Shown here piece after piece: positions 16,708 to 34,377 of a stretch of DNA of 64,000 bases. The DNA lies in IMG/VR virus record IMGVR_UViG_3300003322_000327, positions 38,121-102,120 of that record; one strand, 5' to 3'. Made by a program: the position numbers and the translations under genes. The notes under the pieces were generated by a model. It was not told where the DNA came from. It was given only the letters and a program-made list of their open reading frames with translations, and searched no databases. The first letter of the stretch is position 1. The number at the start of each line of letters is the position of its first letter. This DNA is from a virus.

Positions 16708-19700
16708 ATGCTCGAGAAGACCATCACCTATAAGGACGGGTCGAACAGTCACGACTGGAATCTGACCCTTCCGATCGATCCCAACTACGCGAACCAGAAG
16801 AAGCGACTGCTGGTCATCCTTCAAACGATCGACAGTCGCGACCTCAAGGCCGAAGGTGTGCTCGCCGACAAGCGAGTCAGGACTGCCTTCGTCGAAGCCA
16901 TCAAGCTCGGGCGCAAGTTCGCCCGCCAACGCAAGCCCGATCTCGGTGAGTTCGGGCTTGCTGTCGTTAACTACAACGCTCGGCGCCATCTCCACCTGAA
17001 AGAGCAGGCACGGATCGAAGCCGAAGCCGAGTTCAAGGCTCGAGTTCAGAAGATCATCAAGAAGCTGAACCCTACGCACATCCTGTTCTCCGGCGACCTG
17101 TCTGTCCTGTATCCGGTGAAGGACGCCCCGTTGAAGAACGGCTGGGTGCACGAGTTCGAAGGTCGCAAGGTCACGTCCACCGTCGACTTCGCCAAGCTGC
17201 TGGACAAGGAAGGCCTGTATGCCAACCTGCTCGGCTTCTGGTGTCGTCACCTGGCCAACCTGCTTGTAGGCTCGCTACCTTACAGCCTCGCAGGTCTGGA
17301 ACCGAAGCCGATGCTCGTCGACACCGTGGCCAAGTTTGACCACATGATGGCCGAGTGGGACAAGGTCGAAGCCAAGGGTGGGTTCACTGGTCTCGACACC
17401 GAGACGAAAAACCTCACGGTCAACAACAATCGCATCTTCACGATGCAGATGACGTTCGACCACGACCCACTGGTCGGCTACGTGCTGCCTATCGACCACC
17501 CGCACAAGGACAACCCGTTCACGGTCGACGAACGCAAGTACATCAAGCGTCAACTCAAGGCTCGGTTCGGTGCACCTGACCGCAAGTCCAAGGTCATCAC
17601 CTTCAACGGCATCTTCGACATCCGAGTCATCCGCAAGGCGCTGCACCTCGACATCATCTACATGGGCATCTGGGAGTGCATGGCCGGTGAGCACTTGCTG
17701 GACGAGAACGCATCGAGCTTGCGCTACGTTGGTGTCAGCTCCGACGACGGCCAGATCAGTGCCAACGGCTTGGCCGGTGTCCTCTGCTCCTACGGCAACG
17801 ACTTTTATCTCCGGGACATGTCCTTCGGTAAGAAGGATCGTGCCACGGTCGCGAACGTGAGTCCGAGAGACAAGGGCTTCCTCAAGTACGCGGCGATGGA
17901 CACAGTCTCGATGATAGGGATTCGCAAGTCGCAGATCGAGCGAGCTGATGCTCACTTCCCCGTCGCGGGTAAGGGCTACAAGTCTCCGTTCATCCGCCAC
18001 ATGATGCACCAGATGTCGGACACGGTGCATCAACTGTCCCACCTCAAGGAGGCAGGGTCGCTGGTGAACAAGAAGTACCTGCGATCGCTGATGCAGCCCG
18101 ACTCCGTCCTCGCCAAGGCGATCAAGGAACTGGGCGAAGAATTCAAGACCTTCCCTGAGGTCATCAAGGCCAACAAGGCACTGCTCGCCGACTCCGGCTT
18201 CAAGGCCGGAGGTCTCTTCGGATCGAAGAAGGGTGGCGGCGCCTGGACCTTCAGCTTCACCAAGGCGGCTCACAAGGCGAAGCTGTTTCTAGAAGTCATG
18301 GGCATGGAGGCAGTCAACAAGACGAAGCAGGGCGCGCCTTCGATTGACAAGGACTTCATCGAGACTTACAAGGACCGGAACTTCCTGGTTGCCAAGTTCG
18401 GCGAGTGGACAGCAGCGAACAAGATGCTGGGCACCAACGTCAAGGGCTGGCTCAAGATCCTGACCCGGACGTTCGACGGCACGTTCGACGATCACCTCCG
18501 GTCCGAGATCATCTTCTTCGACGTTGATACGGGTCGCCTCGCAAGCCGCAACCCGAACCTCCAGAACATCCCGAACCGCGGGAAGCTGGCGAAGATCATC
18601 AAGGAGATGTTCATCACGGTCGACGGCCACCTCATGGTCCGGTACGACTACTCAGCGCACGAAGTCCGTGGCTGGTCGATCGTTGCCCTCGACAAGATCC
18701 TGGCGTCGGCCTTCAAGGTCGGTCAGTCTCTGCGGCAGAAGTGGATCAAGGTCCACCCGCCGATGGTGCTCGTCAACTCCGAAGGTCAGCCGATCAAGCT
18801 GCCGATGGCGAAGGACATCCGCGCCACCTACGAGGCTGAACTCAAGACCTCGAAGGACAAGGAACGCATCTCGTTGCTCAAGCGCGTCATCGAGACCGAC
18901 GATCTGGCTGCGCGCTTGAAGAAGGAAGGCGACATTCACATCCAGAACGTGTTCCGGTTCTTCAACAAGTGGGTTGAGAAGTCTGATCCGTTGCGTGACG
19001 CCATCAAGGCCGTGGTCTTCGGTACCATCTACGGCAAGTCGGCGGCCACTCTAGGCAACGATACGAAGAAGGCGGAGTTCGACGCGATCAAGGAGAAGAT
19101 GAGCGTCGCCCACAAGGCCGGTGACCAGAAGACTCTGGACGAACTGATCGAGAAGTACAACGCACTACAGGAAGACGATCGCGAAGACTACGCACAGAAC
19201 ATCATCGACAAGATGTTCTCTCAGTTCAAGGCCGGCCACAAGTGGCTGCTGACCATGAGCGAGAAGGCAGAGCAAGAGCAGCACGTGTACAGCCCGATCT
19301 TCCGCGTCCGTCACCTGTGGGCGACGATCACGAAGGATCGAGCGATCATCAGCCGCCAGGTTCGCCGTGGCATGAACGCGCCGATCCAGGGTTTCGCGTC
19401 CGAGGTCGCGGTCAAGGCTAGTCGTCTGGTCATGCTCGACTACTACAAGAACCAGGACAAGCTCAAGACCAAGATCGGTCTCGACCCCAAGGCCAAGTTC
19501 CCGATCCGATTCAACCGCATGGTGCACGACGCATCGTACTTCACGGTGCCGTACTCGATGGTGTTGCCCTTCATGCACATCCTTCAGTACGATGCGACCT
19601 ACGGCGTGACCAAGGCCTACAAGGACGAGTTCGATCTCGAGTTCACGGTCGAGCCTGAGATCGAAATGGAAGTCGGCGTCCAGGATACGAAGAGCAACAA

Positions 19701-19968
19701 GTGGGGCTGGGCGATCCCGGAACTGCTGCAGCATCTCTCGACCTCTGTCGACGACGGCATCAAGGCCGGCTTCCTCACCGAGTCGAAGGCTGACATCATG
19801 GCGCAGCTCCTGGCGCCGTGGAAGTCGGAACAGAGCCTCAAGTTCCTGAACGAGAAGTTCCCGATGCTCGGCGTCGACCTGACCGAAGAGATCAAGATCG
19901 CGGTCAAGCACTTCGAGGCCCAACAACGCAAGGCTGCGAAAGCGGCGAAGGAAAAGGTGGCAGCGTGA
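16708..19968 (+). CDS. polA: family A DNA polymerase with 3'-5' exonuclease and an N-terminal UDG-like domain
   Basis: ExoI GLDTET, ExoII FNGIFD, ExoIII YAAMD; TGRLASRNPNLQNIP; motif A YDYSAHEVR; motif B RDAIKAVVFGTIYG; NAPIQG; motif C VHDA. Confidence 0.95.
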   Translation: MLEKTITYKDGSNSHDWNLTLPIDPNYANQKKRLLVILQTIDSRDLKAEGVLADKRVRTAFVEAIKLGRKFARQRKPDLGEFGLAVVNYNARRHLHLKEQARIEAEAEFKARVQKIIKKLNPTHILFSGDLSVLYPVKDAPLKNGWVHEFEGRKVTSTVDFAKLLDKEGLYANLLGFWCRHLANLLVGSLPYSLAGLEPKPMLVDTVAKFDHMMAEWDKVEAKGGFTGLDTETKNLTVNNNRIFTMQMTFDHDPLVGYVLPIDHPHKDNPFTVDERKYIKRQLKARFGAPDRKSKVITFNGIFDIRVIRKALHLDIIYMGIWECMAGEHLLDENASSLRYVGVSSDDGQISANGLAGVLCSYGNDFYLRDMSFGKKDRATVANVSPRDKGFLKYAAMDTVSMIGIRKSQIERADAHFPVAGKGYKSPFIRHMMHQMSDTVHQLSHLKEAGSLVNKKYLRSLMQPDSVLAKAIKELGEEFKTFPEVIKANKALLADSGFKAGGLFGSKKGGGAWTFSFTKAAHKAKLFLEVMGMEAVNKTKQGAPSIDKDFIETYKDRNFLVAKFGEWTAANKMLGTNVKGWLKILTRTFDGTFDDHLRSEIIFFDVDTGRLASRNPNLQNIPNRGKLAKIIKEMFITVDGHLMVRYDYSAHEVRGWSIVALDKILASAFKVGQSLRQKWIKVHPPMVLVNSEGQPIKLPMAKDIRATYEAELKTSKDKERISLLKRVIETDDLAARLKKEGDIHIQNVFRFFNKWVEKSDPLRDAIKAVVFGTIYGKSAATLGNDTKKAEFDAIKEKMSVAHKAGDQKTLDELIEKYNALQEDDREDYAQNIIDKMFSQFKAGHKWLLTMSEKAEQEQHVYSPIFRVRHLWATITKDRAIISRQVRRGMNAPIQGFASEVAVKASRLVMLDYYKNQDKLKTKIGLDPKAKFPIRFNRMVHDASYFTVPYSMVLPFMHILQYDATYGVTKAYKDEFDLEFTVEPEIEMEVGVQDTKSNKWGWAIPELLQHLSTSVDDGIKAGFLTESKADIMAQLLAPWKSEQSLKFLNEKFPMLGVDLTEEIKIAVKHFEAQQRKAAKAAKEKVAA

Positions 19969-21069: not shown

Positions 21070-22047
21070 ATGGATCAACGCAAGCTCGATCATGTGATGC
21101 GCGAGCTGAGTCACTACTCAGGCAAGAAGAAGCCGGGCCCTGGCTCGACCTTCGTGACCTGTCCTTACCACTCGGAGAACACACCTAGTGGTCGCATCTT
21201 CCACTCTCCCGACACCCGTAGTCCTGGCTTCTTCCGATGCTACGGCTGCGGCAAGAAGGCGCAGTGGGATGAACTCGCACCCAAGCTCGGCCTCAAGCCC
21301 TACCAGTGGACACCGCCTGTCGATCAGTACGCCTACGCGCTGCGGCAGCGGGACGACGAGCAGAAGGCGCGCAAGCTCGTCTTCTATCCGTTGCCAGGTG
21401 GCAAGGTCTGGCGGCAGATCCGAACTGACTTCCTGCTCACCATCGGCGCTCGCATGTGCCGCGTCATCTACCCCGATGGTGTCAGGTCGCAGAAGATGCT
21501 CTACTTTCCAGTCATGGTCAAGGGAGAGCTCAGAGGCTACATCCGGGCCCGGACACGCAAGGTCGCGGACAAGCCATCGTACCTAAATGCGCCGGGTGAC
21601 TGGTCGCACGACTATGGTCTGTTCCTCTACGATCAAGCCGTGGCCTTGATGCACAAGCTGGGACTCAAGACCGTGGTGCTGTGTGAAGGCCCTCGTGATG
21701 CTCTCCGGCTTCAGACCTTGAACATCCCAGCGATCGCGATCCTGGGCACGCAGTCGTGGTCGAAGCGCAAGAGTCAGATGATCGAGCTGACTGGTGCGAC
21801 TCGTGTTGTCCTCGCCATGGACGGCGACGACGCGGGGCTGGCTGCGATCGAACTCATCAAGCCCTTGCTCCATCAAATGGTGCAGCAGGTGCGAGTGCTG
21901 AACCTGACCGGACGAGACAGCCCATACTGGCGCTTCCGATCCGAAGAAGAACCGTCAAAGGCCGCTAAGGCCGCGGGTGTTGACCTGTGGGACCCGGGTA
22001 ACATGCCGATCGAGAAAGTGGAAGAGCTGAGGTCCCTATGCAACTGA
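21070..22047 (+). CDS. DNA primase (Zn finger plus TOPRIM)
   Basis: CPYH..CYGC zinc finger; VLCEGPRDAL and LAMDGDDAG TOPRIM motifs. Confidence 0.9.
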   Translation: MDQRKLDHVMRELSHYSGKKKPGPGSTFVTCPYHSENTPSGRIFHSPDTRSPGFFRCYGCGKKAQWDELAPKLGLKPYQWTPPVDQYAYALRQRDDEQKARKLVFYPLPGGKVWRQIRTDFLLTIGARMCRVIYPDGVRSQKMLYFPVMVKGELRGYIRARTRKVADKPSYLNAPGDWSHDYGLFLYDQAVALMHKLGLKTVVLCEGPRDALRLQTLNIPAIAILGTQSWSKRKSQMIELTGATRVVLAMDGDDAGLAAIELIKPLLHQMVQQVRVLNLTGRDSPYWRFRSEEEPSKAAKAAGVDLWDPGNMPIEKVEELRSLCN

Positions 22048-22788: not shown

Positions 22789-24114
22789 ATGAGAGAACTA
22801 CCAGCCCCAGGCTACTACTGGGCACCAGCTGCAATGGAGCAACTCTACAACCAGTCGCTGGTGAAGAAACCCTTCGACGGTCCCTACGAGCCCCACATGT
22901 ACCGCAAGGAGTTCGAGGGCAAGGCCGCAGGCGTCCGCATCATGGAAGGCTTCGGATCGAAGATGGCGCACTCGGCGCGCATCAAGCTCAAGGATGCCTG
23001 GCATCCCGGTCGCGAACTCCTGAAGCGCACGCACTTTGGCCTCTACAACGCCCAGGACAAGGTGATGAAGCCTTCGCACCTGGAGCAGGCCGAGGCGCTG
23101 GGCAAGCTGTGCTATCGCATTCAAGACTCGGGTGGCTTCCAGCTCTTCTCTGGCGTCCAGGACTTCATCGACCCAGTCGAGCTGGCGAAGATCCACAACG
23201 TCTTCGCAGACTCCGGAGTTGGCCTCGACTTGCCGATGAGTCTGGTCGAGGACAAGCAACTCGTGATCGCTGGCGCACGCATGATGGCTGCGAACTCCGT
23301 GGTGCTGCAGCGTGAACGCACGACCAAGTGGGCGCTGATGAACGTGAGCCACGGGCTGACCCCTCAACTCCGCGCCACGTGGCAGAAGGTGGCCCTGGCC
23401 GATCCTCTCGACAGCCTGTGCATCGCCGGCCTTCGCGGATCGATCCTCGACACCGCAGTCGGTGCCAACCCGGTTGCGATCGCAGCGCACCTGCTGGTCG
23501 GCATGCTGTACCCTGCCAAGTACAAGCACTACCACCTGTTGGGACTCAGCTCCGTCATCGGCATGAGTCTCGCGGCCCTGATTGCCAACCTGCACCAGAA
23601 GGTCGTGACCTCCGACTCGACAACGTACCTGAACGGGCAGCAGTTCAAGAACTTCATCAACGGCACGATCCCACCGAAGGAAGGCAACTACGGACGGATC
23701 AAGTGCAGCTGTCCAATCTGCAACTTCATCGAGTTCGAGTACTGGATGGATGGCTTCCCGACGCTGATGCTGCTCCACAACGCCGAGCAGATCAACAAGG
23801 GTTGCGAGACGCTGAACGGCCTCGCCAAGGTCGTGATTGCTAAGAAGCTCAAGGGCTTCGAGGCTGCCCGCTTCTTCTTCAAGGCCGGGGTCGGAATCGA
23901 CAAGCGTATGATCCAGCCACTGGGTCGTGCCTTCGACATGATCCTGAACACGAAGAAGTACAGCGAGGCATGCGCCATCGACTACTCGGTGAAGAAGGTG
24001 CAGATGGGATCACTCTTCGGCACCAAGCCCGTCACCAAGGCAGACAACTCGAGGTTCGAGGGCATCATCAAGCGGTACGAGAAGTACCACAAGCAGAAGT
24101 TCCTCAAACCGTAA
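22789..24114 (+). CDS. dpdA: TGT-fold guanine transglycosylase (DpdA-like, predicted 7-deazaguanine insertion into DNA)
   Basis: DSGGFQ signature, LDLP, HLLG, SDSTT, CSCPIC...HN zinc site; adjacent to queC/queE/folE/queD. Confidence 0.8.
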   Translation: MRELPAPGYYWAPAAMEQLYNQSLVKKPFDGPYEPHMYRKEFEGKAAGVRIMEGFGSKMAHSARIKLKDAWHPGRELLKRTHFGLYNAQDKVMKPSHLEQAEALGKLCYRIQDSGGFQLFSGVQDFIDPVELAKIHNVFADSGVGLDLPMSLVEDKQLVIAGARMMAANSVVLQRERTTKWALMNVSHGLTPQLRATWQKVALADPLDSLCIAGLRGSILDTAVGANPVAIAAHLLVGMLYPAKYKHYHLLGLSSVIGMSLAALIANLHQKVVTSDSTTYLNGQQFKNFINGTIPPKEGNYGRIKCSCPICNFIEFEYWMDGFPTLMLLHNAEQINKGCETLNGLAKVVIAKKLKGFEAARFFFKAGVGIDKRMIQPLGRAFDMILNTKKYSEACAIDYSVKKVQMGSLFGTKPVTKADNSRFEGIIKRYEKYHKQKFLKP

Positions 24115-24145
24115 ATAGAAGCATCGCACCTAAGAAGGACCAATC

Positions 24146-25090
24146 ATGAATCCCAACGTCGTACCGTTCTACAGCCATCGCAGCCGCAGGTTCGAAGACC
24201 TGTTCGTCGAGACCCAAGAGCGTCTGCTTGACCTCGCCGGTCTCGATTCCAAGAAGGACATGGCGCTACTCGTCACCGGCTCGGGCACCCTGGCCAACGA
24301 GATCGTCATGAGCTCGATGTCGCGCCGTCCCCACATCGCGACCCACGGAGAGTTCAGCACGCGGCTGCAAGAGACCGCCGACTGCTACTGGGGTGGCGAG
24401 TCGGCGGATCGTGACTACAAGTTCGGCGTCCAGTTCGAGACCGCCGAGGCGACTCTGAACTACACCGACTCGTACTTCGCAGTCGACTGCGTGTCGGCCT
24501 TTCCGTTCTATCCGCTGCCGGAGAAGGCACGGATCATGACCACGGTCAGCTCGAAGCAGCTGGGCGCCGATACGGGCCTCAGCATCATCTTCATTCGCGA
24601 CTACCGCGAACTGCTGACCCAGGGCATCATCGACGGCTCCAAGCGCTCGTACCTGAGCCTGAATCGCTACATCCAGTACGCGCTCAAGAACCAGACGCCG
24701 AACACACCGGGCATCGGACTGATCGAGAGCTTGAACGAGCGCCTGAAGGTCTTCGACCCCGAAGCCGAGCGCGAGCGCATCACCGGCTACTGGCAGCGCA
24801 TCACCGATGCCATCAAGGCCAAGAAGCTGTTTGCGACCTTCACCGGCGTCAAGCCGACTCCGGTCATCACCTTCAAGGGCATCGGCGAGCAGCTCTCCGA
24901 CCTCGGCCTGTACTCGAACTCGGGCAACCCGCAGCTCTTCCTCTGGTCGGCGACCGACGATCAAGTCGATCTCGTGGTCCAGCGCATCATGGACTACGAG
25001 ATGCCAGAAGTCAAGTCGGTGCTGGGCACCGTGGGCACCGCTGTTCCCTTCGCAGCAGGGGTCGGCCTCTCCATCGGAGAATCGAAGTGA
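24146..25090 (+). CDS. PLP-dependent class V aminotransferase-like enzyme (PhnW/serine-pyruvate transaminase fold)
   Basis: VTGSGTLANE, HGEFS, VDCVSAF, SSKQLG (PLP lysine), TPNTP. Confidence 0.8.
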   Translation: MNPNVVPFYSHRSRRFEDLFVETQERLLDLAGLDSKKDMALLVTGSGTLANEIVMSSMSRRPHIATHGEFSTRLQETADCYWGGESADRDYKFGVQFETAEATLNYTDSYFAVDCVSAFPFYPLPEKARIMTTVSSKQLGADTGLSIIFIRDYRELLTQGIIDGSKRSYLSLNRYIQYALKNQTPNTPGIGLIESLNERLKVFDPEAERERITGYWQRITDAIKAKKLFATFTGVKPTPVITFKGIGEQLSDLGLYSNSGNPQLFLWSATDDQVDLVVQRIMDYEMPEVKSVLGTVGTAVPFAAGVGLSIGESK

Positions 25091-25752
25091 GCATCCTCGC
25101 ACATCTCAGCGGCGGCTTCGACTCCGCTGCCTCGACCCTCAAGGTCGCGAACACGGGCGTCACGTTCAGGACCCTGCTCATCAATCTGGGTCAGCCATAT
25201 CTGCTGCAAGAGCGCAAGGCGGCTGAAACCTTCGCCGGCTGGCTGTCGGAGAAGTATCCGAACTACCTCGGTCATCATGAACTGAAGGTCGACATGGCGC
25301 TCTCACAACAGGGCCAGGTCAGCGCCTATATTCCGGTGCGCAACCTCGTGATCGGTGCCATGAGCGCCAACTTCGCACTCGCCACCGGATGCGACACCAT
25401 CGCGGTCGGCAACAAGACGCTCGAACTCAGGCCCGAGGACCCGTACTGCTTCAACGACTGCAGCCTCGAGTTCTACACGGAGCTGGGCAAGCTCGCGACT
25501 TTCGCGTCGCAAGGGCAGAGCGTCCAGTTCATCATGCCACTGCTCGATCTCGTTCACGACAAGTGGGTCGAGGGTGTCGAGATCAAGAAGCGAGTGCCGA
25601 TGTCGAAGCGCGAGGTCGTGCTCTATGTCCAGGAGCAAGGGTACGACGTGCGCCGGCTGTGGAGCTGCTACGAATCGTCGATCCGTCCGTGCGGCAAGTG
25701 CCATCACTGCGCCGAACTCATCAACGCTGGCGTCTGGGACCTCGTATCATGA
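25087..25752 (+). CDS. queC: 7-cyano-7-deazaguanine synthase
   Basis: SGGFDS PP-loop, IPVRN, NDCSLEF, SCY...CGKCHHC. Confidence 0.9.
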   Translation: MSILAHLSGGFDSAASTLKVANTGVTFRTLLINLGQPYLLQERKAAETFAGWLSEKYPNYLGHHELKVDMALSQQGQVSAYIPVRNLVIGAMSANFALATGCDTIAVGNKTLELRPEDPYCFNDCSLEFYTELGKLATFASQGQSVQFIMPLLDLVHDKWVEGVEIKKRVPMSKREVVLYVQEQGYDVRRLWSCYESSIRPCGKCHHCAELINAGVWDLVS

Positions 25753-26606
25753 CCATCATCCCCATCAAGCCGGATCGTGTGATCCAGAACGTCGATCGCG
25801 TCGTCACTGCGCGCGAGTTCGAAGGTCAGGACGACCTGTTCGTCACCGGCCATCCATTCCTCACGATCCAAGGTGAAGGCCCCCGTGCGGGTCAGGTCGC
25901 CTGGTTCGTTCGTCTCGCGGGCTGCAACTTCGGCGACAAGACCACATCGGACAAGAGCCCCGGCATGTGCGCCTTCTGCGACACGAGCTTCCAACTCGAC
26001 CAGGCCAACCAGATCAGTCCCGAGCGACTGCTCGACAACATCATCAAGGACCCGAGGTGGAAGCCGAACCATCTCCTGGTCGTCACTGGTGGTGAGCCGA
26101 CGCTGCAAGCACGAGCCCTGGCTCGCTTCCTAACCCTGGCGGCTGTGCCTTTCGACGACGTGCAGATCGAGACCAACGGCTCGCAGGCCGCGTTCTTCAA
26201 GCTCATCGATCATCCCGACACCAGGGACATGGTCGACAAGCTGATCGTGGTCGTGAGTCCGAAGGCAACGGAGATCACGGGCAAGTACACCCAGACTTCC
26301 AGGTCTGTGCTCTACGGCCCGCAGTCACTGACGGCACTCAAGTTCCTGCTCAGCGCCGACGATCCGTGCTACAAGGAAGTGCCGCTCTGGGGTCGTGAGC
26401 ACATGTCGAACGACAACGGTCCGGTCTACGTGTCTCCGATCGCGGTCTACAAGAAGCCGTACCAGGGCGAGATCAGCAGCGCCTGGGATCACGAACTGAT
26501 CGACGCCGAGGCCACGAGTCGCAACTACAGCTACGCAGCTGCCTACGCAATCGAGCACGGTCTCAACCTCTCGATCCAGCAGCATCTCTTCTGCACCATC
26601 CCATGA
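25749..26606 (+). CDS. queE: 7-carboxy-7-deazaguanine synthase (radical SAM)
   Basis: FLTIQGEG, FVRLAGC, CX14CX2C cluster motif, TGGEP, IETNG, VSPK; ATG at 25749. Confidence 0.9.
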   Translation: MTIIPIKPDRVIQNVDRVVTAREFEGQDDLFVTGHPFLTIQGEGPRAGQVAWFVRLAGCNFGDKTTSDKSPGMCAFCDTSFQLDQANQISPERLLDNIIKDPRWKPNHLLVVTGGEPTLQARALARFLTLAAVPFDDVQIETNGSQAAFFKLIDHPDTRDMVDKLIVVVSPKATEITGKYTQTSRSVLYGPQSLTALKFLLSADDPCYKEVPLWGREHMSNDNGPVYVSPIAVYKKPYQGEISSAWDHELIDAEATSRNYSYAAAYAIEHGLNLSIQQHLFCTIP

Positions 26607-26615
26607 AGGATCACG

Positions 26616-27290
26616 ATGAGCAAGACTGACCACCAACTCGGACTGCAGGTTCGAGATCACCTGATCGCTGCGGGCGTCGAAACTCCGATGATCCCGCTGA
26701 GTCACGCGCGTCCGCTCTACACTCCAGTCGGGCAGAAGGAGAAGATCGCGGAACACTTCGCGGCGATCATGCAGATTCTCGGCCTCGACCTCAACGACGA
26801 CAGCCTGGTCGAAACTCCGAAGCGTGTCGCCAAGATGTACGTGGACGAAATCTTCTACGGCCTCGACTACTCGAAGTTCCCGAAGTGCACGACGGTCGAG
26901 AACAAGATGCGCTACAGCGACATGGTCATGGAACGCAACGTCAGCGTCCAGTCCAACTGTGAGCATCACTTCGTCGTCATCGCCGGCAAGGCCCAGGTCG
27001 CCTACATCCCGAAGGACAAGGTACTCGGTCTCTCGAAGATCAACCGTGTCGTCGAGTTCTTCTCGAAACGGCCGCAGATCCAGGAGCGTCTGAGCGCGCA
27101 GATCTACCACGCGCTGCAGTACATCCTCGGCACCGACGACGTAGCAGTCGTCATCGAGGCCGAGCACTACTGCGTCAAGAGTCGCGGCGTCCGTGACGAA
27201 GGCTCATCGACCGTGAGCTCTCACATGGGTGGCAAGTTCATGGACCCGGCACTCAGGGCCGAGTTCATGTCATTCGTCGAACGAGCCTGA
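26616..27290 (+). CDS. folE: GTP cyclohydrolase I
   Basis: ETPKRVAKMY, NCEHH, GLSKINR, RPQIQERL, HYCVKSRGV. Confidence 0.95.
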   Translation: MSKTDHQLGLQVRDHLIAAGVETPMIPLSHARPLYTPVGQKEKIAEHFAAIMQILGLDLNDDSLVETPKRVAKMYVDEIFYGLDYSKFPKCTTVENKMRYSDMVMERNVSVQSNCEHHFVVIAGKAQVAYIPKDKVLGLSKINRVVEFFSKRPQIQERLSAQIYHALQYILGTDDVAVVIEAEHYCVKSRGVRDEGSSTVSSHMGGKFMDPALRAEFMSFVERA

Positions 27291-27324
27291 TCCAACAACC
27301 TCACCACACCACATAGGAAGCAAC

Positions 27325-28203
27325 ATGAGCACCGAACAAGTCAACGAACAGAGCCAGAACGAGCCCGTCGAAGCCGACCAAGGACTGGCGCCGCCGAAGT
27401 CGTACCCGCTTCTCAGCGCAGCCGAGCTGCAGCGCGTGCTGAGCCGCACCAGCGAGCACAGCTTCGCCTTCAACATCCAGCGCATGAACCAGATGTACAA
27501 GCTGCCGATCCTGACGGCGCCGACTCTGGAAGGTCTGACCAAGCCGAACGGCACGTCCGAGTCGGCCTCGAACCGCATCAAGGGCTTCCTCCGCACCCTG
27601 CACGACGAGGTGCTGGAAGGCAACGAGATCCTGGTCAAGCTGTGCCTCATCGAGTCGAGCCGTCTCGACACCGTGCCGGTGACGCTGGTCGAATGGGTGA
27701 AGACCATCGAAGAACGCCTCGGCATCATCCTCAGCTCCGAGTCGGCCACGAAGTGCCTCGAGTTCGCCGATCTGGTGCAGCGCGACTACGACGAAGCCGT
27801 CAAGGACGTGTTGGTCGACATCGCCGACTGGACGGGCGACATCATGGTCTACTGCCGGTCCGAGGCCATGAAGTTCGGCCTGCCCTCCGAGAACGTGCTC
27901 GAAGCCATCATGGGCTCCAACTTCACGAAGCTGCCCTCCGACGGCATCCCGGTCCACGACGCGAACGGCAAGTTCCTGAAAGACATGACCAACTTCGTGC
28001 CGCCCGAGCCGGCGATCAAGACCATGCTGTTCGGCCTCAAGCCCGAACCCACGGTCGACGCCGACGGCAACGTCAAGGCCACGGTCAGCCCGGCCACCCA
28101 GTCCTGGTTCGGCATCCCCGACTCGGACCCGACGGTCAAGATGAGCAACAACGTGTACTCTCCGGCCGAAGCCGGAACCAAGGACACGGGCTTCGTCGAC
28201 TGA
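27325..28203 (+). CDS. MazG-like all-alpha NTP pyrophosphohydrolase (PRA-PH/DR2231-like)
   Basis: DEVLE...DIADWTGDIMVY...IMGSNFTKL...NGKFLK...PP; ATG at 27325 with AGGAAG SD. Confidence 0.7.
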   Translation: MSTEQVNEQSQNEPVEADQGLAPPKSYPLLSAAELQRVLSRTSEHSFAFNIQRMNQMYKLPILTAPTLEGLTKPNGTSESASNRIKGFLRTLHDEVLEGNEILVKLCLIESSRLDTVPVTLVEWVKTIEERLGIILSSESATKCLEFADLVQRDYDEAVKDVLVDIADWTGDIMVYCRSEAMKFGLPSENVLEAIMGSNFTKLPSDGIPVHDANGKFLKDMTNFVPPEPAIKTMLFGLKPEPTVDADGNVKATVSPATQSWFGIPDSDPTVKMSNNVYSPAEAGTKDTGFVD

Positions 28204-28213
28204 GGACTGACCA

Positions 28214-28537
28214 ATGACTGCAGACCTGAAGCCCTTGGGTTGGGGCATCATCGCCAACAACGCGAAGGACAAGAAGTTGAGGTCCGGGGCCAAGGTCTGG
28301 ATCATCGGTGTCAACGGAGGTGGAGAACGCTGCCAAGTCAGAGGCCTGAATGTCCAAGGCCGCATGATCGAGAAGTACGTGGCGTTCTCCAATCTCAGCA
28401 ACTATCGACCAAGCGCGATCATGCCGACCCACACGAAGCACGAGGTGTGGCCGTTCGGTGGTCCGGATGATCGCGCTGTGGTGCAGGGCTACTGCGATTC
28501 GCTGAACAAGCGGACAGACAGTAAAGAAGAGTCGTAA
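28214..28537 (+). CDS. hypothetical protein (SH3/KOW-like beta pattern)
   Basis: 107-aa ORF, GAGGA SD. Confidence 0.65.
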   Translation: MTADLKPLGWGIIANNAKDKKLRSGAKVWIIGVNGGGERCQVRGLNVQGRMIEKYVAFSNLSNYRPSAIMPTHTKHEVWPFGGPDDRAVVQGYCDSLNKRTDSKEES

Positions 28538-28548
28538 AGGAGCAGAGC

Positions 28549-29181
28549 ATGGAATTCAAGTACAAGTCAACGAAGACCTTTCACCAGGCCTTTCCGGTCG
28601 CGTACAGGCAGTGGCGTGCGGACTCGCATTGCAACGTCGTGCATGGCTACGCGCTGTCGATCCACCTCGAGTTCGGCGCCTTCGACCTCGACGCTCGTAA
28701 CTGGGTCGTCGACTTCGGATCGCTGAAGCCCCTCAAGGCGCAGCTCGAAGACTGGTTCGATCACACGATGCTGGTCGCCGAAGACGATCCGCATCGGGAA
28801 GCGCTGCTCGCTCTCCACAAGCTGGGTGTCGCCAAGGTCACCGAAGTCGAGCGCACGGGCTGCGAAGGTCTGGCCGACTTCGTCTTCGAGCACCTCAACG
28901 ATCGTGACGCCGGCTGGCTCAAACTCTACGGCTACGGCGGTCGCGTCATCTGCACCAAGGTCGAAGTCCGTGAGACGGATGCCAACATGGCGATGCGGAC
29001 CCTGACCGTCAGCGACTGGGTCCGGTTCACGATGCCGACCGAGCAGAAGCACGTCCACCAAGGTGCTGTCGCGGCAGGCAGCACCAAACCAGTCGGCACC
29101 ATCGAAGACTTCGAGGTCGTCTGTGACAAGAACGGACTGACGGCCGATGAACGACTGGCTCAACAAGCGGAGCGAGCATGA
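28549..29181 (+). CDS. queD: 6-carboxytetrahydropterin synthase
   Basis: YRQWRADSHCNVVHGY, WVVDFG, FDHTML, CEGLA, VEVRET. Confidence 0.85.
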   Translation: MEFKYKSTKTFHQAFPVAYRQWRADSHCNVVHGYALSIHLEFGAFDLDARNWVVDFGSLKPLKAQLEDWFDHTMLVAEDDPHREALLALHKLGVAKVTEVERTGCEGLADFVFEHLNDRDAGWLKLYGYGGRVICTKVEVRETDANMAMRTLTVSDWVRFTMPTEQKHVHQGAVAAGSTKPVGTIEDFEVVCDKNGLTADERLAQQAERA

Positions 29182-29935: not shown

Positions 29936-30994
29936 ATGAACGAAACTCAAGTCCGCCCCGTCCAGACCCAGTACGAAGACATGATGCGCTTCATCCGTGA
30001 CCACGGCCGCTACAAGGGCGACCGGACGGGCACCGGTACCAAGTCGATCTTCGGCTACCAGCTGCGCTACAACCTGCAGCACGGCTTCCCGCTCATCACC
30101 ACCAAGAAGGTGGCGACCAAGCCGATGGTGACCGAACTGCTGTGGTTCTTGAAGGGCGACACCAACATCGGCTACCTGCACGAGCACGGCTGCCACATCT
30201 GGGACGAGTGGGCAGACAAGGACGGCAATCTCGGCCCCGTCTACGGTGCGCAGTGGCGTGCGTGGCCGGGCAAGTTCGCCGTCATGCAGACGGCCTCGAT
30301 GGCGAGTCCGGAACGTCAACTCCCGGACGGCGCCCGTGACGTCGTCAACATCGTAGGCCAGACCGGCGACCTCCACACCATCTATCAGGAGCCGATCGAC
30401 CAGATCGAGTGGGTCGTGAATCGGCTGAAGACGAACCCGGACTGCCGGCGCATCATCGTCAGCGCCTGGAACGTGGCCGAGCTGCCGAAGATGGCGCTCA
30501 TGCCCTGCCACGCGCTCTTCCAGTTCTACACGCACGAGCTGACCCTGAAAGAGCGGCAGGACCTGTACCTGACCGACGAGCCGCAGCCCGACTACGCAGC
30601 CGAGACCGACGAGGCGGTGATGCAGCACCTGCACAAGTTCCTGGACGAGCAGGGCGTGCCGCGTCGAGCCCTCAGCTGCCAGCTGTACCAGCGCAGCTGC
30701 GACACCTTCCTCGGCGTCCCGTTCAACATCGCGAGTTACGCGCTGCTGACCCACATGATCGCCCAGCAGGTCGGTATGGCCGTCGGCGACTTCATCTGGA
30801 CGGGAGGCGATGTCCACCTCTACTCCAACCACGGGGAGCAAGTGGACCTGCAGCTGAGTCGAGTGTCCGAAGCCTATCCGTTCCCGACTCTGAAGCTTCG
30901 GAAAGCGAACTCGATCTTCGAGTACACCCACGACGACATCGAGTTCGTGAACTACCAGCACCATCCGGCCATCAAGGCCCCGGTCGCGGTCTGA
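29936..30994 (+). CDS. thyA: thymidylate synthase
   Basis: [61 protein letters not shown]. Confidence 0.97.
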
Positions 30995-32757: not shown

Positions 32758-34377
32758 ATGGAAGTCTTCAAGCTCACCGCCTCGCAGCTGACGAACCTGC
32801 TGCAAATTCTCGGCGCCCTGGTTGCCGACTACATCTCCAATCCGAAGGGTCCGATGGCTCAGAACCTTCGGCCCTACGTCAAGTCGAAGCTCGAGTGGCG
32901 CGACCTGCCATCGTTGCCTCAAGCGATTCAGACCGCGATCAAGGGTGGCGACAAGCTCAGCGCCCTGTTCGAGGTCGGCACCGAACTCCGGCATGCGCTG
33001 CCTGACTTCAAGCAGAACCGCGAGTACACGACGCCCGAACTCAAGATGCTGAACGCGCTTCGCGCTTACCTCAGCTCGGACTCGGAGTCGGCGCTCAACT
33101 ACATCCGCACCAATGCGTCGGTGTTCGGCAGTCCTGAACTCGCCTCCATCTTCGTGCCTCCGATTCCCAAGGCCGACAACGTGGCGCTCAAGCGCGTCGT
33201 CAAGTCGCTGGTCGGTCGCGACGGCACGCACCTGACGCGGCAAGAAGCCGAGATGCTGAAGGAGACGAACCCGAAGGACTACGCGCTGTATGTCGAGCAC
33301 CGGAAGGCGCACAACGCGGAGTTCAAGGCCACGTTGTCGAACTTCGTTCGCAAGCAAGGCGCGAAGGCCGACTATGCGAAGGCCTACAAGTACATCGTGG
33401 GTCAAGGCTTCACGCACTCGATGGTGCCGGGCTTCGATGGCCTGATCGACGACAAGGGTGCCTGGTACACGAAGGAAGGCGAACTCATCAACGGCGTGCC
33501 GAACCTCAGCACCTACACGCACGTGGTGATGAACGATGGCCGAGACCCGGAAGCCAGCTGGATCTTCAAGGCCTACAAACTGGACGGCGAAGTCGCCTAC
33601 GGCTACACGGCCAACTTCCGTCGTTCGCAGTCGAGCGCCAAGTACGAGCACGTGGCCGACCTGATGCGTAACATCGGTGAGATCCAGGCCAAGTGGCAGC
33701 AGAAGATCAAGAAGTTCAATCCGGCTGACAAGCTCAGCGTCTGCGCCGTCGTGCTCGAGATCCTCTACTCGTACGCTGCGCGCATTGGTTCGGCTCCGGG
33801 CCGCGGTGCCGGCACGCTGCTGGTCAAGAACGCGTCGATCACCCAAAACGGCGTCAACCTCGCCTACATCGGCAAGGACTCGATCCCGACCAAGCACATC
33901 ATCCGCTCGGCTGACAGTCCGGCGCACGCCTATCTGGTCAAGGCGCTGAAGATCCTGATGGAAGGCAAGAAGCCTTCGATGTGGCTCTACACCGCAGAGA
34001 TCAACGGACGCCTGGTCCGAGTCAGCCCTGCCGACGTCAATAAGGCGTTCCATCTCTTCGGTGCTCCCGAGTCGGTGACGGTTCACAAGCTGCGGACGTG
34101 CCGTGGTACCACGCTTTTCAAGCACCTGATGGACAAGGATGCAGAGCGCAAGCCGCCGATGACACCGAAGGATGCGCTCGAGCGCTACAAGGACATGACG
34201 ACCAAGGTCGGTCTGCTGCTGAATCACAAGCGTGGTGTCGGTACCGAGAAGGAGTCGGTGACGGGCACGACCGCGGCTCTGTCCTACATCGACGGCGATC
34301 TCCAGGCCGAACTGTGGAGCCGCTGGGGCTTCCGCCCGCCTTCTTTCCTGGAGAAGCTTCTCCGCGACGACTCGTGA
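32758..34377 (+). CDS. type IB DNA topoisomerase-like protein with a long N-terminal extension
   Basis: catalytic pentad pattern ARIG (R), YIGK (K), KLRT (R), LNH (H) and SYID (Y). Confidence 0.75.
   Translation: MEVFKLTASQLTNLLQILGALVADYISNPKGPMAQNLRPYVKSKLEWRDLPSLPQAIQTAIKGGDKLSALFEVGTELRHALPDFKQNREYTTPELKMLNALRAYLSSDSESALNYIRTNASVFGSPELASIFVPPIPKADNVALKRVVKSLVGRDGTHLTRQEAEMLKETNPKDYALYVEHRKAHNAEFKATLSNFVRKQGAKADYAKAYKYIVGQGFTHSMVPGFDGLIDDKGAWYTKEGELINGVPNLSTYTHVVMNDGRDPEASWIFKAYKLDGEVAYGYTANFRRSQSSAKYEHVADLMRNIGEIQAKWQQKIKKFNPADKLSVCAVVLEILYSYAARIGSAPGRGAGTLLVKNASITQNGVNLAYIGKDSIPTKHIIRSADSPAHAYLVKALKILMEGKKPSMWLYTAEINGRLVRVSPADVNKAFHLFGAPESVTVHKLRTCRGTTLFKHLMDKDAERKPPMTPKDALERYKDMTTKVGLLLNHKRGVGTEKESVTGTTAALSYIDGDLQAELWSRWGFRPPSFLEKLLRDDS

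Follow-up and report, generated by a model that had tools for sequence, protein, structure and literature searches.

FolE, QueD and QueE produce 7-carboxy-7-deazaguanine (CDG), and the DpdM methyltransferase and DpdN formyltransferase steps of DNA modification come after QueF. Phage DpdA pathways combine FolE, QueD, QueE and QueC with an insertase of the tRNA-guanine transglycosylase (TGT) fold and use QueF, ArcS, Gat or DpdL; none of their eight described derivatives is an N-substituted amide (PMC6884629; 10.1101/2023.04.13.536721). Canonical QueC adenylates CDG; its nitrogen source is free ammonia, for which no donor enzyme is required (PMC13329287). Two QueC-family proteins of bacterial defence, Cap9 of type IV CBASS and QatC, have a non-canonical signature and act on a protein N-terminus with a CD-NTase or QatB (10.1101/2025.04.06.647259; PMC13329287). 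Cap9 joins AMP-activated CDG to a protein amine, and the TGT-fold protein Cap10 binds the N-substituted amide product (10.1101/2025.04.06.647259). In Campylobacter jejuni capsule amidation, the pyridoxal phosphate (PLP) enzymes Cj1436/Cj1437 make ethanolamine- or serinol-phosphate, which is ligated to an acceptor carboxylate by the ATP-dependent Cj1438 and dephosphorylated by Cj1435 (PMC12409886). We analyzed a 64,000-nt stretch (the window) of the virus record IMGVR_UViG_3300003322_000327, which contains a 7-deazaguanine cluster with a short class V PLP enzyme immediately before a divergent QueC, designated QueC* here.

The cluster shared FolE, QueD, QueE, a QueC-family protein and a TGT-fold protein with the described phage pathways, and a MazG-like gene lay nearby, as in phiST. 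QueF, ArcS, Gat and DpdL were not found in this 46%-complete contig or at the sister loci, and the PLP enzyme and QueC* were present instead. Unlike Cap9 and QatC, QueC* comes from a phage and has a PLP enzyme as its partner, within a complete pathway to CDG. None of the pathways in the literature includes a PLP enzyme, as the preliminary description of this DNA had supposed. No paper links one to deazaguanine clusters in the literature covered, which excluded subscription papers, and PLP or aminotransferase neighbors are unmentioned in a 2026 survey of the QueC family (PMC13329287).

PLP-QueC* is a real, conserved and apparently undescribed two-gene variant of 7-deazaguanine DNA modification. 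The PLP gene was upstream of queC in 13 non-redundant loci (the window, L001, L002, L003, L007, L012, L021, L027, L132, L140, L149, L150 and L151), and one further close relative with the same pairing was known from gene calls. It lay directly upstream of QueC* in every locus except L021, where ~500 bp separated the two, and the PLP stop codon overlapped the QueC* start codon in 10 of 11 junctions checked. The carriers were unrelated phages, including PolA-encoding, PolB/T4-like and small phages. TGT-like genes of three different kinds were present in 11 of the 13 loci, with the limits that the match in L151 was weak and that some of the training sequences of one profile came from these loci. 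The reverse search, starting from QueC*, recovered an upstream PLP gene in all loci with DNA (L132, L140, L149, L150 and L151), and one more, without DNA, had an overlapping 285-aa gene. No PLP gene was found in the canonical phage QueC loci (9g, Knocker, Motura, L119, L141-L144 and L148). A single-sequence query against viral contigs gave no match, and an alignment query was needed to recover the family.

Co-occurrence with dpdA and queC, which the preliminary description had set beforehand as a test that could refute it, was strongly positive, and this supports the assignment of the PLP gene to the pathway. We consider it most improbable that the gene is an unrelated auxiliary metabolic gene of serine or phosphonate metabolism in a cluster that makes dPreQ0. 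Such a role would fit the weak PhnW and SerC similarity and the occurrence of the family in glycosyltransferase clusters, but it was largely refuted by the two-way linkage with a divergent QueC clade, by the overlapping start and stop codons, and by the control set, in which any QueC was near a long class V gene in only 3 of 74 loci.

The QueC of the window matched PF06508, in line with the queC call of the preliminary description, but it is a member of a divergent clade and not the ordinary QueC assumed there. It scored 48.6 bits against TIGR00364 (cut-off 150.3), and QueC* formed a separate clade of 45 sequences (FastTree support 0.84). The clade retained the SGGxDS loop, PxRN (VPxRN in canonical QueC) and the C-terminal Zn motif with its Tyr. 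The YxQxHxxE motif was altered: Q-x-H occurred in 0 of 45 sequences and Q-x-Y in 43, with L-G-Q-P-Y in the window protein. Since only 4 of 10 comparison QueCs contained Q-x-H, this motif is variable among phages too. YPDC was absent from all 45; in 40, F-x-D/E-C/T followed an inserted G-N/S/T-K segment. The aromatic at the YPDC site is kept, and the Y131F variant of E. coli QueC is partly active (PMC13329287, also the source of the canonical signature used here).

In the PDB, the best match of the QueC* clade profile was Cap9 (E 2.6e-14), closely followed by B. subtilis QueC (1.5e-13), and both Cap9 and QueC* lack the His of YxQxH. QueC* could accordingly be imagined to act like Cap9 and QatC and join CDG to the N-terminus of a protein, in a module that modifies a protein or decoys host defence and leaves DNA alone. 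We regard this as highly unlikely, as the neighbors included no CD-NTase and no other conserved target gene, the constant neighbor is a small-molecule enzyme, and the TGTs of several loci are DpdA1- or DpdA2-like and stand among replication genes. PADLOC detected only its generic QueC model in the window, and no CD-NTase plus Cap10 was adjacent to QueC*, whose neighbors were pathway and replication genes.

The PLP protein had no Pfam match at E 0.1 and no PHROG match, whereas longer relatives (e.g., that of L140) pass the Pfam gathering threshold. At least 150 relatives were found, counting one per 50%-identity cluster; these were short, unannotated phage proteins, mostly of 270-310 aa, and the nearest Atlas clusters were viral and without names. 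The structural model (pLDDT 88) showed a two-domain class V, fold type I enzyme, with Z scores of 24-27 to PhnW, SerC and serine-pyruvate aminotransferase and a match at Z 26.9, rmsd 3.1. The Schiff-base Lys (K137) was conserved in 141 of 142 homologues and the pyridine Asp (D114) in all 142, as were the phosphate-binding S117 (137/142) and T187 (140/142). A His-Arg pair (H11 and R12, each in 141/142) aligned with the SHR of 3ffr, the SerC-type His44-Arg45 site. With the catalytic residues intact, pseudogene status was rejected.

The fold, the PLP Lys and Asp and the SerC His-Arg motif are thus shared with PhnW/2-aminoethylphosphonate transaminase (AEPT), SerC and serine-pyruvate aminotransferase. 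The PLP protein differs from class V aminotransferases in being ~60-80 residues shorter, in its 14-22% identity and in lacking the carboxylate-binding Arg. Work on human PSAT assigns binding of the substrate phosphate to the His-Arg pair and that of the alpha-carboxylate to Arg342 (PMC10031235). The corresponding Arg sits in the FRIG-type strand of PhnW/AEPT, where the longer L140 relative has a Gln opposite it. With the register set through a multiple alignment, and with L140 and the GNAT type as bridges, this class V position corresponds to Q263 of the family (Gln in 135/142 homologues). A joint MAFFT alignment placed Gln in that column for 26 of 26 short phage enzymes and nearly all bacterial enzymes linked to GNAT acyltransferases, while ordinary aminotransferases have Arg there. 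Profile alignment confirmed the Gln-for-Arg exchange for the GNAT type with a probability of 98%. No invariant His-Arg corresponding to the second SerC half-site (His335-Arg336) was found in the small domain of the PLP family, a region that aligns poorly. An enzyme that binds PLP and a distal acid group and has lost the transaminase carboxylate anchor would suit a decarboxylase or lyase. The PhnW/serine-pyruvate type proposed in the preliminary description was correct as to the class V fold; membership of PhnW or SerC was rejected, as scores were far below the family cut-offs (39 bits against TIGR03301, the PhnW/AepZ model, with a curated cut-off of 360.8) and the Arg is missing. Literature on a class V phosphoserine decarboxylase, and on echiguanine, yielded nothing usable.

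About half of the phage loci of the PLP family had no deazaguanine genes. There the gene directly after the PLP gene encoded a RimK-like ATP-grasp ligase, in most cases accompanied by an HAD-like gene (12 non-redundant loci), and the set stood among glycosyltransferase, methyltransferase and PIG-L genes. This context mirrors the C. jejuni system, in which glucuronic acid serves as the acceptor and a ligase other than QueC forms the amide. Conserved phage clusters of glycosyltransferase-like, methyltransferase-like, Gln-type PLP, RimK-like ATP-grasp, HAD-like and PIG-L deacetylase genes were seen, some near tail and some near replication genes, in L009, L010, L014, L016, L030, L033, L036, L037 and L055, and these clusters possibly serve the amidation of virion or DNA glycans. 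Two short family members were fused, as judged by motifs, to a methyltransferase-like (P0118) and an HAD-like (P0142) C-terminal domain. On the tree, QueC*-linked and ATP-grasp-linked PLP enzymes were interleaved (4 and 3 changes), which indicates that the enzyme moves between ligases and suggests that its product is a generic amine and not a deazaguanine. The HAD genes of the two contexts had no significant mutual similarity and would be at most independent recruits.

The bacterial Gln-type relatives were fused or adjacent to GNAT/FeeM acyltransferases. These widespread fusions and pairs (PF13444/FeeM; L056-L118, e.g., L079:7380-9035, L070:6009-7591 and L089:7923-9439) have Gln for the catalytic-site Arg and are candidate N-acyl amino-alcohol synthases. 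In L070 and L089 the pair comes after a canonical queC-queE. The Gemella N-acyl-serinol synthase (Cohen 2017) reportedly has an additional domain of the aminotransferase kind and may belong to these GNAT-class V fusions; if true, this would favor serinol-phosphate as the amine. At L140:5916-7699, the partner of QueC* was a full-length PLP enzyme of 362 aa, Gln-type and grouped with the bacterial GNAT-linked enzymes. This pair is possibly a second recruitment or an ancestral form, its branch being long and its placement unsure.

The preliminary description had favored a PLP enzyme that tailors the 7-substituent, by transamination between preQ1 and the 7-formyl form or by decarboxylation of CDG. 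The position of the gene inside the cluster and the transaminases among its nearest named families agree with this, and preQ1 could come from a host QueF. We nevertheless consider it improbable. Neither the contig nor 14 loci yielded a QueF (single-query test), the carboxylate-binding Arg is absent, about half of the family's loci are free of deazaguanine genes, and the divergence of QueC would be left unexplained. PLP chemistry requires an amine or carbonyl substrate, so that an aryl carboxylate alone is no substrate, and direct decarboxylation of CDG was rejected for this reason. The second option of that description, substrate supply, is the one favored by the evidence, with the divergent QueC as the partner.

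The 441-aa protein at the start of the cluster had no family match, and its model had the TGT fold (E 2e-9 to TGT structures). D113 (DSGGFQ), D147, D276 and the Zn ligands C306/C308/C311/H330 were invariant in 19 homologues, and the relatives in Motura and GR7B carry a TGT annotation. The dpdA-like call of the preliminary description was therefore sustained by the fold and by the catalytic and Zn residues, but the protein could not be placed in DpdA1, 2 or 3 (hhalign E 0.14 for DpdA1 of 9g, 0.008 for the nt-1-like DpdA2 and 0.56 for DpdA3 of phiST); it was linked only indirectly, via L001, to a DpdA2-like protein. In phages with a TGT 57-82% identical to this one, the flanking genes were kept and the content of the slot differed: QueC and a Gat-asparagine synthase in L119, and a YdjM-like gene with a short QueC-like gene in L120-L122. 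More distant relatives (L123-L126 and BCSR5) had DpdL-like and glycosyltransferase genes. We read these modules as offering the CDG carboxylate different fates, and PLP-QueC* would then act at the same step.

Taken together, the PLP-QueC* linkage, the swapping of the slot, the missing Arg with the His-Arg pair kept, the neighbors that form C-N bonds, an NT5C-like HAD gene between the TGT and PLP genes (L017, L132, L149 and L150) and the precedents of Cap9 and C. jejuni make us lean towards a scheme in which a small amine formed by the PLP enzyme is joined to CDG by QueC* before the TGT inserts the product into DNA. The identity of the amine is much less certain than the scheme. Most likely the PLP enzyme would decarboxylate O-phosphoserine, with O-phosphoethanolamine as the small primary amine that results; aminopropanol-phosphate, serinol-phosphate and beta-alanine are alternatives. 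By analogy with Cap9 chemistry, QueC* would adenylate CDG and react it with the amine instead of ammonia; the product, an N-substituted 7-carboxamido-7-deazaguanine, is expected to be unable to dehydrate onward to preQ0. An HAD phosphatase, encoded in several sister loci and not found here, may strip the phosphate. As known DpdA enzymes suggest, the TGT would put the modified base in the place of guanine once the phage DNA has been replicated, presumably as a shield against host nucleases. In a variant order, ligation would occur on DNA, following insertion of CDG.

For the fuller proposal we see about as much for as against: a widespread two-gene phage module would make an undescribed base, e.g., an ethanolamide, perhaps still phosphorylated, and the PLP enzyme would represent an unrecognized Gln-type subfamily of class V enzymes, amine-forming decarboxylases that also feed ATP-grasp ligases of phage glycosylation clusters and GNAT N-acyl-amide synthases in bacteria. 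The odds that the system makes a new base are about even; the undescribed modification foreseen in the preliminary description is plausible, as a prediction from genomes. If true, amide-linked side chains would form a new branch of 7-deazaguanine DNA modifications, and phages would use Cap9-type amine ligation on a small molecule. Mass spectrometry would gain specific target masses, with calculated [M+H]+ values of 310.115 for dADG, 354.141 for the ethanolamide and 434.107 for its phosphate, 368.156 for the aminopropanol amide, 382.136 for the beta-alanine amide and 384.151 for the serinol amide. The Arg-to-Gln exchange would provide a sequence marker to re-annotate many phage and bacterial "class V aminotransferases". 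The five or six genes are all small and synthesizable, which opens the question to direct testing in E. coli, a host in which divergent DpdAs have failed.

Several observations weigh against this scheme. How exactly Q263 lines up with the Arg is uncertain: MAFFT placed both in the same column, and direct profile alignment of the short family was shifted by 3 residues; the strand of the short family lacked an Arg in both registers. We found no Gln-type class V enzyme with a citable function. No HAD gene was found in the window's contig, which is 46% complete. PLP and QueC* distances tracked each other no better than those of other pathway genes (Mantel, r 0.24, n 9, p 0.12), and the QueC*-linked PLP enzymes do not form one clade. 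Among cultured phages (50,697 records, four queries) the module was found in none; the matches returned, an ordinary phosphonate AEP transaminase and a staphylococcal SerC-like gene, were both Arg-type and were rejected. Acceptance of a bulky amide by this TGT is an assumption. The C. jejuni PLP enzymes may serve as an analogy, and Cj1436/Cj1437 are not known to be class V.

The PLP enzyme could alternatively be an ammonia-releasing lyase that replaces the Gat of Gat-QueC, with QueC* reaching ADG, preQ0 or archaeosine, all of them known bases, along a new path. The PLP gene lies 5' of QueC, the position of Gat in Gat-QueC fusions, and the equivalent slot holds Gat-asparagine synthase in L119 and Motura; QueF, Gat and DpdL were not detected in PLP-QueC* loci by single-query searches, and the missing Arg speaks against ordinary transamination only. 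We judge this route rather unlikely, because canonical QueC takes free ammonia and requires no donor enzyme (PMC13329287), the same family adjoins ATP-grasp ligases, GNAT acyltransferases, which need organic amines, are the fusion partners of related Gln-type enzymes, and the recurrent HAD gene is left unexplained. It would still constitute a new route to a known base.

The coordinates of the cluster are given in Table 1. The ORF listing confirmed the reported gene order from dpdA-like to queD as eight co-oriented ORFs, all on the + strand, at 22789-29181. The GTGA overlap between the PLP gene stop and the queC start was found at 25087-25090, and queC and queE overlap by ATGA; the remaining junctions were gapped by 9-34 nt, so that the earlier wording "mostly coupled" was slightly generous.

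Table 1. Genes of the 7-deazaguanine cluster in the window, in 5' to 3' order.
Feature	Coordinates	Strand	Details
TGT/DpdA-like guanine transglycosylase	22789..24114	+	441 aa; TGT-fold model, catalytic and Zn residues
Short class V (fold type I) PLP enzyme, Gln-type	24146..25090	+	314 aa; fold model, 142 homologues
Divergent QueC (QueC*)	25087..25752	+	221 aa; PF06508 match; GTG start
QueE, CDG synthase, radical SAM Cx14CxxC type	25749..26606	+	285 aa; PHROG 2076, E 4.5e-29
FolE, GTP cyclohydrolase I	26616..27290	+	NF006824 304 bits, over cut-off
MazG/PRA-PH-like nucleotide pyrophosphohydrolase	27325..28203	+	PHROG 671 E 1e-11; Atlas
107-aa ORF	28214..28537	+	no family match
QueD, 6-carboxytetrahydropterin synthase	28549..29181	+	PF01242, PHROG 2389; CxxxHG motif

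Pfam, PHROG and NCBIfam matches upheld the queE, folE and queD calls, and the MazG-like call likewise held. For QueE, the top NCBIfam match was TIGR04508, with a score under its cut-off. Because it carries the CxxxHG motif, QueD is not DpdL. MazG-like homologues were present in L119, L120, L122 and L124, and the gene also occurs in relatives without the PLP gene. The 107-aa ORF had 0 matches in Pfam, PHROG, NCBIfam and PADLOC and no homologue reported in related loci, and there is no evidence that ties it to the pathway. The cluster sits in a 109.6-kb virus contig estimated to be 46% complete, and syntenic relatives of the contig extend to 238 kb. In agreement with the preliminary description, which saw no QueF or ArcS in the window, neither QueF nor the ArcS core (DUF5591) was found in this contig, nor were a class II glutamine amidotransferase and NT5C. 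Promoter matches in the locus were no more common than in shuffles, and terminator-like matches numbered 13 against 6.8 in shuffles, none at an operon end. PolA, primase, thymidylate synthase and topoisomerase-IB-like genes flank the cluster (16708-19968, 21070-22047, 29936-30994 and 32758-34377), in the same order as in L119-L122, from which the family names were carried over.

The slots of related phages showed further variation. A short QueC with GGGIDS and a Gat-asparagine-synthase gene were found at L119:10620-15962 and in the cultured Achromobacter phage Motura (L128:4743-6629). L119 also had an R2K ATP-grasp gene after folE, a queE with a large NUMOD3-containing insertion (L119:12507-14429) and a polA interrupted by a reverse-strand DUF7487 gene (L119:870-5202); a DUF7487 gene was also present in the L121 cluster. 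The slots at L120:10341-11247, L121:10380-11241 and L122:9351-10278 encode a YdjM-like protein of 132-139 aa and a truncated QueC-like protein of ~160 aa, in which SGGWD and GQ.Y were present and the Zn motif was not detected. In L123-L126 and L131 (Burkholderia phage BCSR5, MW460245), the TGT family was accompanied by DpdL-like and GT-B glycosyltransferase (~400 aa) genes, the glycosyltransferase match in BCSR5 being weak, and QueC was not detected in these loci. Their base is possibly a glycosylated or decarboxylated deazaguanine, an idea open to testing in BCSR5, which is cultured. The cultured jumbo phages Peetri, GR7B and PhiXhv-15 (L127, L129 and L130) carry this TGT family with no preQ0 cluster within 7 kb; PhiXhv-15 has a lone queD, and GR7B has an acyl carrier protein gene nearby.

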